Part shown: piece by piece, positions 38,887-54,629 of the stretch
Numbering within the stretch: the first letter of the stretch is position 1
Layout of the letters: every line of letters begins with the position of its first letter
Source of the DNA: a virus
Lineage: Duplodnaviria; Heunggongvirae; Uroviricota; Caudoviricetes
Direction: 5' to 3' (one strand)
DNA: 64,000 nt
Virus record (IMG/VR): IMGVR_UViG_3300027628_000007
Notes under the pieces: model-generated
Told to the model about the DNA's origin: nothing
Databases searched by the model: none
The model's input: the letters and a program-made list of their open reading frames with translations, nothing else
Made by a program: the position numbers and the translations under genes

Positions 38887-40104
38887 ATGAAATACATCAT
38901 TGATACGAATGTATTACTTAGAAATCCAGAAATTGTAAAAGAGTATGATGCAGTAATTCCTTCTCATGTATTAAGAGAAATCGAAGACCTAGAGTTAAAA
39001 AGAAAAAGCGATAGAACATTGCAGTTTGAGATTCGCAGATTAAAGAAATTCTTAGATGCGAATGACCATATTTACGTTGACAAAAGAGATTACAAGTTTA
39101 CACTTGATGATGAATTAGATGGTCAATATGTGGACAACATCTTATTACAGGTAGCTGTAGACAACGGTTGGGGTATCGTTACTGGTGACCGTTTAATGAA
39201 GCTGAAATGCAGAGATTACAATATTCCTTTCGTAAATCTAGAAGAAGACCATTTCGTGGAGCACAAAGGATTCAAAGAAGAAGAGCTTTCAGAGACAGAG
39301 TGGATTAATATGATGGACACACCATTTATAAACTACTTTGAGTTAATGATTAATGAATACGCTATCATTAACAATGTAAAAGATGGAGAGCTGTTAGACA
39401 TCGTTAAATGGGATGGAAAAGAGACAAAATCATTACGAGATGCAAATGGCAATCTAGGTGCTAAATTCTCAACTTTACAATTTGGTGAGTTTAAGCCGTT
39501 TGATGAACAACAAATCATGGCAATTGATAGTATTAGAAGTAATCAGTTAACATCTATTCGTGGGCGTGCAGGTAGTGGTAAATCACTAATCACGTTAAAC
39601 ACTGCTTGGAGACTAGTTGAGGAAGAAGGATACAAGCTAGTAATGTTTGTTAACCCAACACCTCTTCGTGAAGCACAAGAGCTTGGATTCTACAAGGGTG
39701 ACCGTAAAGAGAAGTTAATGCAATCAGCAGTAGGTACAATGCTTAAATCTAAATTCGGTAGCGAAGAAGAAATTGAAAAGCAAATCATCTATGAGCGTTT
39801 AGAAATCCTTCCATTCGTAGATTTACGTGGTTGGGACTCTGGTGATAATAAAACTATCGTATGGATTCTAGAAGCACAGAATTTAACGGCAGACCTTATG
39901 AAACTTGGTCTACAACGTATCACAGAGAATACTAAAGTAGTAGTAGATGGAGATTTCCATGCACAGGTCGATAAAGACTCTTACGCTTCTAACAACGGTA
40001 TGAAACGTATGTCAGAGGTGTTTAGAGGGGATGTACTATATGGTGAAGTTGAATTACAAACTGTACACCGTAGCCGTTTAGCAGACCTTGCAGACAAAAT
40101 GTAA
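38887..40104 (+). CDS. phoH: PIN-PhoH fusion (PhoH2-like RNase/ATPase)
   Basis: IIDTNVLL PIN motif; GRAGSGKS, EAQN, VDGD PhoH motifs. Confidence 0.92.
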   Translation: MKYIIDTNVLLRNPEIVKEYDAVIPSHVLREIEDLELKRKSDRTLQFEIRRLKKFLDANDHIYVDKRDYKFTLDDELDGQYVDNILLQVAVDNGWGIVTGDRLMKLKCRDYNIPFVNLEEDHFVEHKGFKEEELSETEWINMMDTPFINYFELMINEYAIINNVKDGELLDIVKWDGKETKSLRDANGNLGAKFSTLQFGEFKPFDEQQIMAIDSIRSNQLTSIRGRAGSGKSLITLNTAWRLVEEEGYKLVMFVNPTPLREAQELGFYKGDRKEKLMQSAVGTMLKSKFGSEEEIEKQIIYERLEILPFVDLRGWDSGDNKTIVWILEAQNLTADLMKLGLQRITENTKVVVDGDFHAQVDKDSYASNNGMKRMSEVFRGDVLYGEVELQTVHRSRLADLADKM

Positions 40105-40723: not shown

Positions 40724-40765
40724 GTAACACATTCAGTTGACAAAAGCAAATAGTAATGATATAAT
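40724..40765 (+). promoter_or_regulatory. Class B promoter driving the tRNA/ncRNA array
   Basis: GTAACACA-N5-TTGACA-17-TATAAT, extended -10. Confidence 0.9.
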
Positions 40766-40794: not shown

Positions 40795-40856
40795 AAGGCA
40801 CGAACAGCAAACTCACAAACAACTATTCAATTGGTATGAAAATGTGAAGTGCCTTG
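40795..40856 (+). ncRNA. ACAGCAA-stem RNA Y1
   Basis: AAGGCAC-GA-ACAGCAA ... GTGCCTTG; inner TCACA/TGTGA stem. Confidence 0.75.
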
Positions 40857-40863
40857 TTATCAT

Positions 40864-40936
40864 GCTCCTATAGCTCCAATGGTAGAGCGACAGATTGTTA
40901 ATCTGGGTGTTGTTGGTTCGAATCCATCTAGGAGCG
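40864..40936 (+). tRNA. trnN: tRNA-Asn (GTT)
   Basis: Cloverleaf; loop TTGTTAA. Confidence 0.9.
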
Positions 40937-40987
40937 TAAACGTGGCGTACTATCCGCAGACACGTAAAGAAATAGATAGTGATTTAT

Positions 40988-41061
40988 GGCTCATTAGTTT
41001 AATGGTAAAACGGTGCACTGTCTATGCACAGTTAGGGGTTCGATTCCCCTATGGGTCGCCA
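40988..41061 (+). tRNA. trnD: tRNA-Asp (GTC), CCA encoded
   Basis: Cloverleaf; loop CTGTCTA. Confidence 0.92.
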
Positions 41062-41062
41062 T

Positions 41063-41136
41063 ACGTCTTTAGTGTAGTGGTAACACTCTAGTCTCCAAAA
41101 CTAGCATCCTTGGTTCAAATCCAAGAGGGCGTGCCA
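41063..41136 (+). tRNA. trnW: tRNA-Trp (CCA), CCA encoded
   Basis: Cloverleaf; loop CTCCAAA. Confidence 0.92.
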
Positions 41137-41137
41137 C

Positions 41138-41208
41138 GTGGAATTAGTTTAGCGGTAGAATTTCTGATTGCCATTCAGAAGGCAGGGTTTCGATTACCCT
41201 ATTCCACA
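41138..41208 (+). tRNA. trnG: tRNA-Gly (GCC)
   Basis: Cloverleaf; loop TTGCCAT. Confidence 0.88.
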
Positions 41209-41214
41209 TATTAT

Positions 41215-41288
41215 TTCGGTGTAGACAAACTGGTAAAGTCACTAGCCTTTGAAGCTAGGGTTTGGAGGTTCGAAGCCTTCCACCGAAG
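41215..41288 (+). tRNA. trnQ: tRNA-Gln (TTG)
   Basis: Cloverleaf; loop CTTTGAA. Confidence 0.92.
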
Positions 41289-41357
41289 TCTAACCAAAGT
41301 TTCACACTTTGGAAACTAGATATTAATTTCTTAATACTAATATTAGTATCTAGTTTC

Positions 41358-41428
41358 CAGTGTGTGGCGTAATGGTAACGCAGTGGACTGTGAATCCATG
41401 AATGAGAGTTCGATTCTCTCCATGCTGA
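41358..41428 (+). tRNA. trnH: tRNA-His (GTG), lacking G-1/C73
   Basis: Cloverleaf; loop CTGTGAA. Confidence 0.85.
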
Positions 41429-41483
41429 TAAGAGAATGTTTACAGTATTATTCAACTCTTTAAAAAGAAACTGTCCACAACGA

Positions 41484-41556
41484 TGCGGTGAGGACAAATG
41501 GTTAAGTTGCTTGGCTCATAACCAAGAGATAGAGGGTTCGACTCCCTCCACCGTAA
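41484..41556 (+). tRNA. trnM: tRNA-Met/Ile2 (CAT)
   Basis: Cloverleaf; loop CTCATAA; paired 1:72, so not an initiator. Confidence 0.88.
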
Positions 41557-41560
41557 TTTA

Positions 41561-41678
41561 AAGACACTAACAGCTACTACTTACAGAGCAAAACCTTCTA
41601 TCGTTGGTTCGAATCCAACCGTAGGCTTGATGCCTACGTGGACAAGTGGTTAAGTCAAAGGTCAATTAAAGTGTCTTG
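41561..41678 (+). ncRNA. ACAGC-stem RNA Y2 with circularly permuted tRNA module (YrlA-like topology)
   Basis: T arm, closed acceptor hairpin, D arm, ACCTT/AAGGT stem inside AAGACAC/GTGTCTT. Confidence 0.85.
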
Positions 41679-41683
41679 ATTAT

Positions 41684-41764
41684 GCGTGGGTGATGGAACT
41701 GGTAGACATGTGGGACTTAAAATCCCATGCCTAGTGCGTGAGGGTTCGAATCCCTCCCTACGTA
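41684..41764 (+). tRNA. trnL: tRNA-Leu (TAA)
   Basis: Cloverleaf with long variable arm. Confidence 0.9.
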
Positions 41765-41780
41765 TCAACTTTTTACCATA

Positions 41781-41854
41781 GGGGCTGTGGTGAAGGGGTT
41801 TAACACGCTAGTCTGCAAAACTAGTATCCGCCAGTTCAAATCTGGTCAGTCCCT
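41781..41854 (+). tRNA. trnC: tRNA-Cys (GCA)
   Basis: Cloverleaf; U73. Confidence 0.9.
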
Positions 41855-41869
41855 CTCAATTATTATTAC

Positions 41870-41943
41870 GCTCTGTTGGACAAATCGGTCAAGTCGCTAC
41901 CCTTTCAAGGTAGAGAATGCGAGTTCGAATCTCGTACAGAGTA
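41870..41943 (+). tRNA. trnE: tRNA-Glu (TTC)
   Basis: Cloverleaf; loop CTTTCAA. Confidence 0.92.
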
Positions 41944-41947
41944 TACA

Positions 41948-42066
41948 AAGACACATACAGCAACTACATTAAATACACTTTCAGAACAAGTAAGGTCTAG
42001 GTTCGAATCCTAGCGTGGCGTGACTAAGCCATGTGGTGTAATGGGAGCATTAAATAATGTGTCTTG
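41948..42066 (+). ncRNA. ACAGCAA-stem RNA Y3 with permuted T/acceptor/D module
   Basis: CTAGG-TTCGAAT-CCTAG, CGTGGC/GCCATG, GTGT-AATGGGA-GCAT inside AAGACAC/GTGTCTT. Confidence 0.85.
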
Positions 42067-42094
42067 CAGAGAGTCTAGTCAACTCTCACCACAT

Positions 42095-42165
42095 GGTCAG
42101 TTCGTATAGTGGAAATACAATCGGCTGATAACCGATAAACGGAAGTTCAATTCTTTCACTGACCA
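42095..42165 (+). tRNA. trnI: tRNA-Ile (GAT)
   Basis: Cloverleaf; loop CTGATAA. Confidence 0.9.
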
Positions 42166-42175
42166 TTTATATTAT

Positions 42176-42259
42176 GTTGGTGCGGTAACGTTGGAGTGTT
42201 ACGGTGGGCTGTAACCCCATTGGCATTTGCCTTAGTAGGTTCGAATCCTATCACCTTCA
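42176..42259 (+). tRNA. trnY: tRNA-Tyr (GTA), two acceptor mismatches
   Basis: Long variable arm; T.T at 2:71 and 3:70. Confidence 0.75.
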
Positions 42260-42270
42260 TCTTTTATTAT

Positions 42271-42343
42271 GGCGAAGTAATCCAACGGCAGAGATAGTGG
42301 TCTTAGAAGCCATCCAGTGAGGGTTCGAATCCCTCTTTCGCTA
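42271..42343 (+). tRNA. trnL: tRNA-Leu (TAG) with short variable loop
   Basis: Cloverleaf; 5-nt variable region; A73. Confidence 0.85.
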
Positions 42344-42349
42344 TTCCTA

Positions 42350-42473
42350 AAGGCATGTACAGCAATTAAAAAATTCGGTCAGCCATTATTTGACTAGTAG
42401 CTCAACTGGTTAGAGCATCCGATTGATAATCGGAAGGTTGTTGGTTCGAGTCCAACCTTAATTGTGTGCCTTG
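42350..42473 (+). ncRNA. ACAGCAA-stem RNA Y4 enclosing an acceptor-less tRNA-Ile(GAT) body
   Basis: Intact D, anticodon and T arms nested in AAGGCAT/GTGCCTT and CAATTAA/TTAATTG. Confidence 0.85.
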
Positions 42474-42481
42474 TTTATTAC

Positions 42482-42555
42482 GTGGATATGGGGCAGTCTG
42501 GTAGCCTACTCCTTTTGGAAGGGAGATGTCGCAGGTTCAAATCCTGCTATCCGCA
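42482..42555 (+). tRNA. trnP: tRNA-Pro (TGG)
   Basis: Cloverleaf; loop TTTGGAA. Confidence 0.9.
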
Positions 42556-42626
42556 CTAATCTTACTGGTGTTCTAGATTTCAAAGACGAAGACTAGAGTT
42601 AAGCTTCTCTTATAAAAAGCATTCTT

Positions 42627-42710
42627 GGACGGTTAGACATAATGGTATTGGGTCGGTCTTGAAAACCGATGGGGGTAAAACCTTTGGGAGTTCGAATCTC
42701 TCACCGTCCG
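42627..42710 (+). tRNA. trnS: tRNA-Ser (TGA)
   Basis: Long variable arm; G73. Confidence 0.88.
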
Positions 42711-42716
42711 TATCTT

Positions 42717-42806
42717 GGATAGTTGTCAGAGTTAGGCTTATCGTGCTTCCCTGCTAAGGAAGTGTGGGTAACACCACCACAGGTTCAAATCCTGTACTAT
42801 CCGCCA
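42717..42806 (+). tRNA. trnS: tRNA-Ser (GCT), CCA encoded
   Basis: Long variable arm; loop CTGCTAA. Confidence 0.9.
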
Positions 42807-42807
42807 C

Positions 42808-42879
42808 GTGGAATTAGTGTAATTGGCAACATCGGTGATTTCCAATCATCTGTTACGAGTTCGACCCTCGTATTCCACA
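42808..42879 (+). tRNA. trnG: tRNA-Gly (TCC)
   Basis: Cloverleaf; same acceptor stem as the GCC copy. Confidence 0.9.
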
Positions 42880-42884
42880 TATTT

Positions 42885-42956
42885 ATCTCTATAGTGTAAT
42901 GGACAACACACAGGACTACGAATCCTGTAATTGAGGTTCGAATCCTCATAGGGATG
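42885..42956 (+). tRNA. trnR: tRNA-Arg (ACG)
   Basis: Cloverleaf; loop CTACGAA. Confidence 0.92.
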
Positions 42957-42962
42957 TATTTT

Positions 42963-43036
42963 CTCCACTTAGCTCAATTGGACAGAGCGGTAGGTTTCTA
43001 CCCTATAGGTTAGGGGTTCGAGTCCTCTAGTGGAGG
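42963..43036 (+). tRNA. trnR: tRNA-Arg (TCT)
   Basis: Cloverleaf; loop TTTCTAC. Confidence 0.92.
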
Positions 43037-43040
43037 TATG

Positions 43041-43103
43041 TAGGCTCTAACAGCAATCATAATCCATTTGACTGTTAATCAAAAAAAGGTATAAAGAGCC
43101 TAG
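43041..43103 (+). ncRNA. ACAGCAA-stem RNA Y5 carrying an isolated tRNA-Asn anticodon stem-loop
   Basis: TAGGCTC/GAGCCTA stem; TTTGA-CTGTTAA-TCAAA. Confidence 0.8.
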
Positions 43104-43116
43104 TTTTTAAAATAAT

Positions 43117-43158
43117 GTAACACACTTGCTTGACAAAAGCAAAAGATAATAGTATAAT
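43117..43158 (+). promoter_or_regulatory. Class B promoter of Y6-Y7-TROVE
   Basis: GTAACACA-N5-TTGACA-17-TATAAT. Confidence 0.9.
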
Positions 43159-43165
43159 TAACTCA

Positions 43166-43242
43166 TAGACTCACACAGCAATCTACATACATATGACCAA
43201 ATTTAAAGATTAAAAGAATTTATCAAAAGTATTAGAGTCTAG
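43166..43242 (+). ncRNA. ACAGCAA-stem RNA Y6
   Basis: TAGACTC-AC-ACAGCAA ... GAGTCTAG, starting about 8 nt after the -10. Confidence 0.75.
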
Positions 43243-43255
43243 CAATACTGTTTTA

Positions 43256-43355
43256 AAGACACACACAGCAATCCTAAACCAAACAACTTACATTAAAAGA
43301 TGAATATTATGTGAACTTGGGGTAACAGCCGACTCACAAAAGGTTTAGTGTCTTG
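43256..43355 (+). ncRNA. ACAGCAA-stem RNA Y7
   Basis: AAGACAC-AC-ACAGCAA ... GTGTCTTG; inner TAAACC/GGTTTA. Confidence 0.8.
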
Positions 43356-43451: not shown

Positions 43452-44933
43452 ATGTTAAATCATTTGCAAAACGAGTTTAACAAATCAAAAACAGCGAATG
43501 GGGCATTTGCTTATAAGAGCACAAAGTCAGATGTACTTGACTTGTTTTCTACTGGTGGTGCATTCCGTAATCGCAGTGACGAAGATGTAAAGGTTTTAGT
43601 TTCTAAAGCTTATGGTGAAAATCCAGAATTAGCTATGAAAACCTTATTCTATCTTCGTGATATTACAGAGGGTCAAGGTGAAAGACGTTTCTTCCGAGTT
43701 GCTATGCAACATTTAGCTCTTCATCACAAAGAGTCATTAAAGAAGAATTTAGCGTTAGTGCCTGCATTTGGTCGATGGGATGACTTATGGGTGTTGCTAG
43801 ACACAGACTTAAAGGCAGACGTATTAGCTTTAGTTAAACGTCAATTAAATGCTGATAAGAAAGCAGAACATCCAAGCTTACTAGCTAAGTGGATGCCATC
43901 TGAAAATGCTTCTAGTTACAAGACTAAGAAGTATGCAAAAATCATGCGTGAGCATTTTGGTGTAAAACCAAAGCAATACCGTAAGACATTATCTGCTTTA
44001 AGAGCGAAGTTGAACTTAGTTGAGACTAAGCTTACAGATAAGCGTTATGGAGAAATTCAATATGATAAACTGCCATCACGTGCAGGATTAATTTATCGTG
44101 GAGCATTCTTCCGTAATGATGAAGACCGTTACAAAGACTTTTTGGACAGCTTGACTAAAGGTGAAGTTAAGATTAATGCTAAAACATTATATCCATACGA
44201 CATCGTTAGCAAATGTTTCCAAGGTTTTAGAGGTCAAAACATCTGGGGTGGATTTGGGAAAGAACTAACAAGAGAAGAAATTCAATTGTTAGATGCACAA
44301 TGGAAAGCGTTGCCAGACTTCATTGATGGTGCGAGTGAAAACTCTATCGCTGTCGTGGACACATCTGGTAGCATGACTGGAAATCCAATGAACGTTGCAG
44401 TGTCTTTAGGTATCTACCTAGCTGAACGTAACAAAGGAGTATTCCATAATCACTTCTTAACTTTCAACAGCAGACCAGACCTTAAAAAAGTCGTAGGTGG
44501 CAATATTGTTGAAAAGGCACGTAACTTGTCTGATTCAAGTTGGGGTGGCTCAACTAACATTGAAGCCGTATTCCAAAAAATCTTGGACACAGCAGTTAAA
44601 AACAACGTACCTAAAGAAGAAATGATTGCCAAAGTGTACATCATCTCTGACATGCAGTTTAACCAATGTACGCAAGGTGCTGATACACACATCTTCAAGC
44701 ATATGGCAGAGAAATTCGAAGCTAAAGGTTACGAATTGCCAAACTTAGTATTCTGGAATGTGAACGCATTCGTGAGTAACACACAGTTTACTATGAATGA
44801 GCAAGGAGTGCAATTAGTATCTGGATTGTCACCATCCATCTTCAAGCAATTGTTAGATGCGAATGGCAAGACTGCATATGAGTTGATGTTAGATGTAATT
44901 GAGTCTGATAGATACAAAGAGGTAACAGCGTAA
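43452..44933 (+). CDS. TROVE/Ro60-like (DUF2828-type) protein with C-terminal vWA domain
   Basis: T.NGA.A..ST, LFYLRD..GQGERR, GRWDDL, LAKW.PSE helical region; DTSGSM MIDAS and ISDMQFN. Confidence 0.85.
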   Translation: MLNHLQNEFNKSKTANGAFAYKSTKSDVLDLFSTGGAFRNRSDEDVKVLVSKAYGENPELAMKTLFYLRDITEGQGERRFFRVAMQHLALHHKESLKKNLALVPAFGRWDDLWVLLDTDLKADVLALVKRQLNADKKAEHPSLLAKWMPSENASSYKTKKYAKIMREHFGVKPKQYRKTLSALRAKLNLVETKLTDKRYGEIQYDKLPSRAGLIYRGAFFRNDEDRYKDFLDSLTKGEVKINAKTLYPYDIVSKCFQGFRGQNIWGGFGKELTREEIQLLDAQWKALPDFIDGASENSIAVVDTSGSMTGNPMNVAVSLGIYLAERNKGVFHNHFLTFNSRPDLKKVVGGNIVEKARNLSDSSWGGSTNIEAVFQKILDTAVKNNVPKEEMIAKVYIISDMQFNQCTQGADTHIFKHMAEKFEAKGYELPNLVFWNVNAFVSNTQFTMNEQGVQLVSGLSPSIFKQLLDANGKTAYELMLDVIESDRYKEVTA

Positions 44934-53924: not shown

Positions 53925-54629
53925 ATGGCACAATTAAAGAAACAAGATTTAATTAACATTTTGGTGGAAGAATACGGTTACGAAAAAGAAGATTTAAAAT
54001 TCGATGCTAACGGTAATCCATATACAAATGCAAAACTTAAACTGTTAATCAAGGCAGAAGAAAAAGATGCAGAAAGATTAGAAGATGAAGACTTATTAGA
54101 AGAAGAAGCAAGTCATGCGGATTCTGACAAGATTCCTGTGATGAGTGGTTCAACAGGTACAATTATCTATCGTTCTGAAACTAGCAATAAGTTCTGGAAG
54201 TTTACTCAATTTGGTCAAAAGGATAAAATCCCATATGGCGAATTAGTAGCAATGATGAATAAATATCCACGTTACTTCTTAGAAGGTTGGATTATCATTC
54301 GTGATAGAGCAGTGGTTGAAGAATTTAGATTAGCTGAATTATACAAAAATATTGAAAAGATTGTTTCACCAGAAACATTTGATGAAGTATTTAGCTATCC
54401 AGTAGATAAACTAGAAGCGATTATTAACAGTCTACCAGACGGAATGATTAATACATTTGTCAATAGAGCACAACAATTATATAGTGCAAGACGTTTAGAC
54501 AGTCTGCATGTTAAAAACTTGATTGAAGAAAAATTTAAGTTCTCATTAGATGATAATGCACCAATTAGCGACATCGCACTGGAAACAGACACAGGCGTAC
54601 AAAATATTATCTATGTAGACCATAATTAA
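53925..54629 (+). CDS. Hypothetical virion-module protein
   Basis: ORF with RBS. Confidence 0.8.
   Translation: MAQLKKQDLINILVEEYGYEKEDLKFDANGNPYTNAKLKLLIKAEEKDAERLEDEDLLEEEASHADSDKIPVMSGSTGTIIYRSETSNKFWKFTQFGQKDKIPYGELVAMMNKYPRYFLEGWIIIRDRAVVEEFRLAELYKNIEKIVSPETFDEVFSYPVDKLEAIINSLPDGMINTFVNRAQQLYSARRLDSLHVKNLIEEKFKFSLDDNAPISDIALETDTGVQNIIYVDHN

Follow-up and report, generated by a model that had tools for sequence, protein, structure and literature searches.

A phage RNA with a Y-RNA-like handle and a predicted lone tRNA-Asn anticodon arm, encoded near a Ro60-like gene

Structure of the Y5 element

The 64,000-nucleotide stretch of DNA analysed in this study (hereafter the window) derives from the Caudoviricetes record IMGVR_UViG_3300027628_000007 and is part of a large, Tsamsa-like Bacillus siphophage, whose record spans 139.8 kb and is 83 % complete. 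The window contains an array of 19 tRNA genes (positions 40863-43037; ARAGORN), and seven elements that share one design, termed Y1 to Y7, lie between and after the tRNAs of this array. In each of these elements, a helix of 7-9 base pairs is formed from the two ends of the element; 1-3 nucleotides and the invariant sequence ACAGC(A/T)A come next, and the cargo after them is variable. The element considered here, Y5, occupies positions 43041-43103 on the plus strand and precedes by 350 nucleotides a gene for a Ro60-like protein. Comparative sequence analysis strongly supports the view that Y5 is a conserved, structured, gene-linked RNA that displays a lone anticodon arm of asparagine identity.

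The complete 63-nucleotide handle RNA reads TAGGCTCT-A-ACAGCAA-TCATAATCCA-TTTGA-CTGTTAA-TCAAA-AAAAGGTATAA-AGAGCCTA-G. The closing helix, P1, comprises eight base pairs between a 5′ arm (TAGGCTCT, 43041-43048) and a 3′ arm (AGAGCCTA, 43095-43102). The 5′ arm precedes the invariant single-stranded handle motif ACAGCAA (43050-43056), which is a putative docking site for the Ro60-like protein. The anticodon-arm mimic (43067-43083) consists of TTTGA (43067-43071) and TCAAA (43079-43083), which form five Watson-Crick pairs that enclose the hairpin loop CUGUUAA (43072-43078) with GUU at positions 43074-43076. Y5 had been described in the initial annotation as a lone tRNA-Asn anticodon arm, with a 5-base-pair stem and a C-U-GUU-A-A loop, held within a 63-nucleotide handle RNA, and this is the arrangement that we find. 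A conserved G at 43103 completes the element and is followed by a run of U nucleotides (GTTTTT). A putative middle helix, P2, is only 63-65 % paired in the MAFFT alignment of homologues and has only two base pairs in the window copy. Y5 scores 61.4 bits (E-value 2e-11) with our covariance model R1. Identical copies are present in loci L004, L005, and L006, and homologous copies in L003 and L020.

Neither ARAGORN nor the Rfam tRNA model matches positions 43041-43103. Y5 has no cloverleaf, acceptor, D-arm, or T-arm, and the 17-nucleotide anticodon-type hairpin is its sole tRNA part. This hairpin can be compared with genuine tRNAs of the fetched loci, which include 80 viral loci and 29 loci from bacterial genomes that were gathered through the neighbouring protein (DUF2828) alone. 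Over all fetched loci, ARAGORN identifies 60 tRNA-Asn(GTT) genes, 56 of which have the loop CTGTTAA, and the commonest real tRNA-Asn arm is TCTGA-CTGTTAA-TCAGA. The loop CTTTTAA is found in 38 of the 39 tRNA-Lys(TTT) genes. The chromosomal tRNA-Asn arm of one Thermoactinomyces genome, which also hosts a DUF2828 locus, reads CCCGA-CTGTTAA-TCGGT, and the 11-nucleotide core of Y5 (GACUGUUAAUC) is identical to that Bacillales chromosomal tRNA-Asn. In addition, the two loop-proximal pairs of the Y5 stem, G30-C40 and A31-U39, are those of phage and chromosomal tRNA-Asn. Larger tRNA-Asn-derived bodies, which include an anticodon arm, a T-arm, and an acceptor end with CCA, are joined to a hairpin and an ACAGCAA handle in other phages, and the sister RNAs Y2 to Y4 of the window show other tRNA parts.

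Conservation of the hairpin

A scan of IMG/VR with the pattern ACAGCWA-N8-30-GACTGTTAATC returned at least 107 stretches. The matches listed include 66 handle-enclosed elements of 58-79 nucleotides, and 57 Asn-type copies in loci with a fetched DUF2828-like gene. All 57 of these copies are on the gene strand, and 48 lie within 300 nucleotides upstream of the DUF2828-like gene, with a median distance of 181 nucleotides. The same listed matches yield 23 non-redundant homologues that fall into 15 clusters at 75 % identity. The sequence ACAGCAA is invariant in all 23 aligned homologues, and a motif of this type is common to the seven Y elements of the window and is also found beside the DUF2828 genes of distant lineages.

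In the MAFFT alignment of these 23 sequences, P1 is 97.5 % paired and has compensatory changes at 7/7 counted pairs. The hairpin stem is 98.2 % paired, and each of its three pairs not fixed by the search pattern shows double changes in 10 of the 23 sequences. As a control, sliding the 3′ partners by 1-3 columns causes pairing to fall to 35-46 %. Counting outward from the loop, stem positions 1-2, which were fixed by the search pattern, are paired in 23/23 sequences, and positions 3-5 are paired in 22-23/23 with the variants TA, AT, GC, CG, and GU. Positions 6-7 are paired in only 4-5/23 and are mostly A·A or A·C. Because pairing is held at positions 1-5 and lost at positions 6-7, the stem is exactly five base pairs long, which is the geometry of an anticodon arm. 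The comparison of loop identity across homologues that the initial annotation had proposed therefore gives a clear answer, in that the loop is not unconstrained but is kept above a 5-base-pair stem that covaries in the 23 homologues.

The loci gathered through the protein provide a further view of this constraint. Handle elements located with a loose regular expression number 289 on the gene strand versus 85 on the other strand, and covariance-model matches number 142 on the gene strand and 0 on the opposite strand. A loop census based on constrained minimum free energy (MFE) structures missed the Asn loops, with the MFE preferring ACAG:CUGU pairing, and was replaced by an enumeration of hairpins against shuffled sequences. 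In a set of 98 unique short elements, the loop C-N-(G/U)-UUAA closed by a stem of at least 4 base pairs occurs nine times versus 0.07 expected (0/2000 shuffles of the cargo), an enrichment of approximately 100-fold over shuffled cargo, and the Asn (GUU) and Lys (UUU) forms dominate among these loops. In a pattern-blind test, seven cargo loops were identical to a genuine anticodon-loop 7-mer, defined as one seen in at least three real anticodon loops, versus 0.59 expected (0/2000 shuffles). These seven loops correspond to two Asn, four Lys(UUU), and one Ser. Loci with a hairpin of the C-N-(G/U)-UUAA type no more than 400 nucleotides upstream of the gene amount to 16/86 unique loci, versus 0/86 on the reverse complement.

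The distribution of Y5 among related phages is uneven. In the cultured phage vB_BcoS-136 (MH884508) of Bacillus cohnii, a Y5 homologue at 54374-54438 has the hairpin unchanged and compensatory changes in its handle (TAGACACT/AGTGTCTA). This copy sits mid-operon, directly upstream of the tRNA-Asn of that phage, and has no U-run. Y5 is absent from the phages Thrax1 and PBC2. Locus L007 encodes a Ro60-like protein that is 99 % identical to that of the window, yet has neither Y5 nor Y6. When positions 4740-4800 of L007 are set against 43038-43110 of the window, the tRNA-Arg gene of L007 runs straight into GTTTTTAAAA and then the promoter. By this sequence comparison, Y5 is a precise presence/absence cassette between near-identical phages, a pattern characteristic of accessory, conflict-related elements. 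As judged from the alignments, the Asn-arm handle RNA recurs in many unrelated phages and is a real, selected mimic of a tRNA part.

A Ro60-shaped partner protein

The gene downstream of Y5 (43452-44933, plus strand) encodes a protein of 493 amino acids with DUF2828 and DUF7788/vWA domains (Pfam), which belongs to PHROG 850 ('RNA-binding protein'). Pfam TROVE does not match this protein, and a sequence search found no relative of it with a solved structure. AlphaFold modelling with 21 homologues gave a structure with a predicted local distance difference test (pLDDT) score of 80.6. When this model was searched with Foldseek, the top 12 PDB matches were all Ro60/TROVE proteins, aligned over the full length of the model, with template modelling (TM) scores of up to 0.59. 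The best fold matches include Xenopus Ro60 (1YVR; E-value 1e-6, TM 0.56) and the Ro60 protein of the Thermus phage phiLo (9KOP; TM 0.57-0.59). The DxSxS MIDAS-type triad (D303, S305, and S307) is invariant in the 21 homologues. The modelled product of this gene has a Ro60 fold, in which a HEAT-repeat ring is combined with a vWA domain that carries a MIDAS motif, and the handle elements are best read as Y-RNA-like putative partners of this protein.

In a gut-type lineage (L104, 4086-6512), two genes lie downstream of the Ro60-like gene, one for a PP2C phosphatase and the other for a protein kinase that weakly matches TCAD9. Together with the vWA domain, these neighbours are reminiscent of vWA-PP2C-kinase conflict systems.

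Genomic context

Y5 begins 3 nucleotides downstream of the last tRNA gene of the array, tRNA-Arg(TCT) (42962-43037, plus strand; ARAGORN), which does not encode its CCA. A sigma-70-type promoter with 12/12 consensus positions (40737-40765, plus strand) would drive Y1, the tRNA array, and Y5. A second promoter, also with 12/12 consensus positions (43130-43158, plus strand), starts the transcription unit composed of Y6, Y7, and the Ro60-like gene, and therefore Y5 lies outside that unit. The handle RNAs Y6 (43166-43241) and Y7 (43256-43354), both on the plus strand, are located within the leader of the Ro60-like gene.

The remaining sister elements, all on the plus strand, carry larger or unrelated cargos. 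Y2 (41561-41677) and Y3 (41948-42065) have permuted tRNA-like bodies on the same handle. Y4 (42350-42472) has a tRNA-Ile body without an acceptor stem on this handle, and its match to the Rfam tRNA model covers model positions 6-65 only. Y1 (40795-40855) carries a different conserved cargo (TCAATTGGTATGAAA). A weaker hairpin in Y1 had been set beside that of Y5 in the initial annotation. This hairpin is present (TTCA at 40826-40829, loop ATTGGTA at 40830-40836, TGAA at 40837-40840), but the comparison with Y5 fails. Because its homologues keep a different core, TCAAWTGG..ATGAAA, and have loop lengths of 6-8, Y1 represents a separate cargo class that is not anticodon-like. Its core, TCAAWTGG(N1-3)ATGAAA, reaches lineages at 37 % protein identity (L083 at 4875, L074 at 7189, and L017 at 1088), and the Y1 cargo is thus a second widespread class. 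Handle RNAs of a further class, absent from the window, combine a lone T-arm (GGTTCAATTCC) with a preceding anticodon-type arm whose loop is CUUCAA(A/C), with UCA as the anticodon and UGA as the codon that it would read. This class is seen at L013 3289, L003 4516, L020 3389, and L001 5256.

Several other features of the region were recorded. The genuine tRNA-Asn(GTT) of the phage (40863-40937, plus strand) has the anticodon loop UUGUUAA at 40895-40901, with U32, and the Y5 loop has the canonical C32. In Thrax1, a relative that lacks Y5, the tRNA-Asn loop is canonical, and such cases are too few to interpret. Positions 42179-42255 are tRNA-like with the loop CTGTAAC (possibly Tyr GTA), are missed by ARAGORN, and give a weak Rfam tRNA-Sec match of 25 bits; the Thrax1 annotation has a tRNA-Tyr at the equivalent position. 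Between tRNA-Gln and tRNA-His there is a long inverted repeat (41296-41356; GGAAACTAGATA...TATCTAGTTTCC), and at exactly this position Thrax1 has an HNH endonuclease gene (L001, 3144-3713). The inverted repeat may be the empty site, or the footprint, of a homing element. Upstream of the tRNA and Y-RNA region lies a gene for a PIN + PhoH (YlaK-type) ribonuclease/NTPase (38887-40104), whose placement is syntenic in Thrax1, PBC2, and vB_BcoS-136. Nearby genes also include those for an exonuclease-type phosphoesterase, terminase, and portal. Elsewhere, a ROOL RNA (RF03087, 207.7 bits) is found at 9294-9890 of L022, inside a phage tRNA array, with a DUF2828 gene and a Lys-type handle RNA at a distance of a few kb.

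Proposed function and alternative explanations

We see an even chance that Y5 is a small RNA of the Y-RNA kind, whose handle docks the Ro60-like protein and whose Asn-type arm is displayed, as bait or tether, to a factor that reads anticodon loops. Y5 would be transcribed as the final element of the phage tRNA operon. Because it starts 3 nucleotides after a tRNA-Arg gene that encodes no CCA, Y5 would constitute the 3′ trailer of this tRNA and is probably freed when the tRNA matures. The end helix and the adjacent unpaired ACAGCAA would then act as a handle for the DUF2828/vWA protein, and the cargo is a single hairpin of 5 base pairs and 7 loop nucleotides that, as the comparison shows, copies the tRNA-Asn anticodon arm. 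In the resulting particle, this hairpin could be presented to a factor that recognises the anticodon loops of tRNAs decoding AAN codons (GUU of Asn, and UUU of Lys in the sister RNAs). The factor would most likely be a host anticodon-loop nuclease, or alternatively a modification enzyme or a class IIb synthetase, and Y5 may either soak up this factor as bait or bring the Ro60-like protein to it as a tether. Since the handle (ACAG) and the loop (CUGU) are able to pair, a protein bound to the handle may free and present the arm.

The decoy or sponge role proposed in the initial annotation is plausible by analogy. Anticodon loops are cut by many defence nucleases, some of which act on isolated anticodon stem-loops (PMC13692257), and the Y RNAs of Ro60 are known tethers and tRNA mimics (PMC4201824, PMC12135203). 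The nuclease, the t6A machinery, and the class IIb synthetases are candidates for the partner. Tgt was rejected as a general partner because the Lys-type (UUU) and U33-less sister loops lack U33-G34-U35, which is the Tgt determinant.

Several observations weigh against this proposal. The scan pattern fixed the loop and two stem pairs, so the Asn-type set of 23 sequences was pre-selected for these features. To our knowledge U33 is present in all tRNAs, and yet a lineage at approximately 42 % protein identity has the equivalent loops CCGTTAA, CGGTTAA, and CGTTTAA, and L021, at 47 % protein identity, has CATTTAA, all of which lack U33. From these sequences, the selected core may be C32 with K34-U35-U36-A37-A38 rather than a full anticodon loop. 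In the window copy, a rival fold of the naked RNA that pairs AACAGCAA with UUGACUGUU, and hence ACAG of the handle with CUGU of the loop, has an MFE of -15.0 kcal/mol versus -10.2 kcal/mol for the hairpin, and is thus favoured by 4.8 kcal/mol. The RNAalifold consensus of the 23 sequences also chooses the rival pairing. In four soil metatranscriptome runs, contigs from relatives span the whole 5.5 kb including coding genes, and these libraries may contain DNA; one 267-nucleotide contig that spans Y5 is uninformative either way with regard to a discrete small RNA. Finally, RtcB and RNA_ligase were not found in the phage record, which is incomplete as given above, and because no RNA ligase was found there, a role in RNA repair is without local support.

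The U33-less loops would also fit a reading in which the hairpin is bound by the Ro60-like protein or another phage protein that recognises the core (G/U)UUAA, with the likeness to Asn and Lys tRNAs being convergent or a tRNA relic and with no present mimicry towards host factors. The element also occurs in distant lineages as a single RNA in the 5′ leader of the gene, an arrangement that suits autoregulation. Moreover, every model-aligned loop at this position ends in UAA (U36-A37-A38), although this carries little weight because the model is biased to its training loop; U36-A37-A38 is a signature of ANN decoders. We nevertheless regard such a protein-binding site as unlikely. Exact 7-mer identity to real anticodon loops is 12-fold enriched and concentrated on Asn and Lys, and the stem is exactly 5 base pairs with the tRNA-Asn-like pairs G30-C40 and A31-U39. 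Larger tRNA-Asn-derived cargos are carried on the same handle, the sister RNAs of the window display other tRNA parts, and Y5 itself is separated from the gene leader by a promoter.

The rival fold raises a different prospect, in which CUGU is kept for its pairing with ACAG and Y5 acts as a self-masking or switching RNA that hides the docking motif or the loop until a signal arrives, the anticodon likeness being secondary. Both the MFE structure of the window RNA and the RNAalifold consensus contain this pairing, and the two folds differ little in energy among the 23 homologues (12/23 favour the hairpin; mean difference -0.3 kcal/mol). None of the five rival pairs varies, and they lack covariation, whereas the stem of the mutually exclusive hairpin covaries. 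ACAGCAA also stays constant in all handle RNAs irrespective of cargo, sister loops at the same position, the Lys-type CUUUUAA among them, cannot pair with ACAG, and a switch leaves the UAA of the loop and the A-U and G-C pairs of the stem unexplained. Because the rival pairs never vary and the Lys-type loops cannot form them, the rival pairing is better viewed as a possible alternative conformer than as the selected structure, perhaps one that is displaced when protein binds the handle. We consider a switch of this type distinctly unlikely. Least probable of all, to the point of being hardly credible, is that Y5 is a functionless by-product, such as the remains of a decayed tRNA-Asn, a transcription terminator, or a signal for processing where the tRNA operon ends. 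Its location 3 nucleotides past the last tRNA and before GTTTTT, and its absence from close relatives, would fit a by-product. However, the element is conserved with compensatory changes in the 15 sequence clusters of the matches listed, from very different phages, and most lineages place it upstream of the Ro60-like gene. The vB_BcoS-136 homologue is mid-operon without a U-run, and an exact 5-base-pair stem with an invariant loop is not expected of a decaying remnant. This conservation pattern, as read from the alignments, largely refutes a by-product. An intrinsic terminator was rejected, as a simple terminator scan makes no call and no U-run follows the homologues in L003 and the gut-type lineage.

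The proposal that Y5 serves as bait or tether can be extended to the wider family. In its broadest form, a Ro60-like particle in many phage lineages would display as bait copies of the host anticodon arms of Asn and Lys, AAN decoders that are preferred targets of defence nucleases, with gating by protein binding to a handle that is otherwise paired with the loop, and would trap, neutralise, or report an anticodon-loop nuclease. We offer this extension tentatively and hold it to be rather doubtful as a whole. If true, it would represent a general RNA-based form of counter-defence and a long-sought function for a Ro60/Y-RNA system.

Comparison with known systems

Ro60 proteins and Y RNAs are conserved from bacteria to humans. 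DUF2828 proteins and ACAGCAA-handle RNAs form a large, uncatalogued phage branch, and among known systems the nearest to it is Ro60 with YrlA-type Y RNAs. No Rfam family matches Y5 or its distant homologues, and a literature search on anticodon-arm decoy RNAs and on DUF2828 function found nothing relevant. As with the YrlA-type RNAs that partner Ro60/Rsr (RF02553; PMC4201824), Y5 is encoded near a gene whose product is modelled with a Ro60 fold, its 5′ and 3′ ends form a putative docking stem, its variable module mimics part of a tRNA, and several RNAs may serve one protein. The YrlA layout of T-arm, closed acceptor, and D-arm is present in Y2 and Y3 but not in Y5, which shows only the anticodon arm, the tRNA part that YrlA lacks. 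Docking of YrlA involves a bulged helix with CGAA, whereas the Y elements place ACAGCWA beside a plain helix, and the YrlA partner is a Pfam TROVE protein whereas the putative partner in the window is DUF2828. RF02553 gives no match at Y5, and within the region its one signal (42318-42416) reaches 17.8 bits, against a gathering score of 69.

The Thermus phage phiLo likewise encodes a Ro60-fold ring with a vWA domain, and its small RNAs Yrl1 and Yrl2 are located just upstream (PMC12135203; 9KOP, 9L5Y). This system has been proposed to hijack a host RNA enzyme as counter-defence (PMC12135203). The phiLo RNAs differ in having a CGAA bulge and binding PNPase, no anticodon-arm module or tRNA array has been described for them, and the sequence identity between the phiLo and window proteins is only approximately 15 %. 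An anticodon-like module has been modelled in Deinococcus radiodurans Yrn1 (PMC4201824), a Ro60-bound Y RNA with a potential 'anticodon arm' that has a 5-base-pair stem. However, its loop has 6 nucleotides without an anticodon-loop sequence, and the stem is inside a larger tRNA-like fold rather than forming a lone arm.

The Class I RNAs of dictyostelids (RF01414; PMC7919456) resemble the handle elements in being approximately 42-65 nucleotides long, with a short covarying end stem, an unpaired motif after the 5′ arm, and a variable remainder. The likeness is one of architecture; the letters of the motif are not spelled out in PMC7919456, and the Class I RNAs have an RRM protein as their known partner. 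Membership in RF01414 was rejected, with the best genome match (13.8 bits, E-value 0.9) lying outside the Y region and below the gathering score of 41.5.

The phage tRNAs that counter anticodon nucleases in T5 and mycobacteriophage (PMC13692257) share with this locus a phage tRNA array, anticodon loops of the type targeted by nucleases, and an accessory, variable distribution, and Lys is a classical target of such nucleases. Those tRNAs are complete and decoding, and replace the host tRNAs that are cleaved, whereas Y5 cannot decode and could act only as bait or tether. A bare Asn or Lys anticodon arm would be the simplest possible tRNA-like module, and bears on the purpose of the modules found in bacterial Y RNAs. 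The identity of the arm would narrow the partners to readers of AAN-decoder loops, namely anticodon nucleases, t6A or queuosine enzymes, and class IIb synthetases. If the partner is a defence nuclease, then Y5 would exemplify an RNA bait strategy that is distinct from the replacement-tRNA strategy, and this would account for the presence of such RNAs inside phage tRNA arrays and for their coming and going between near-identical phages.
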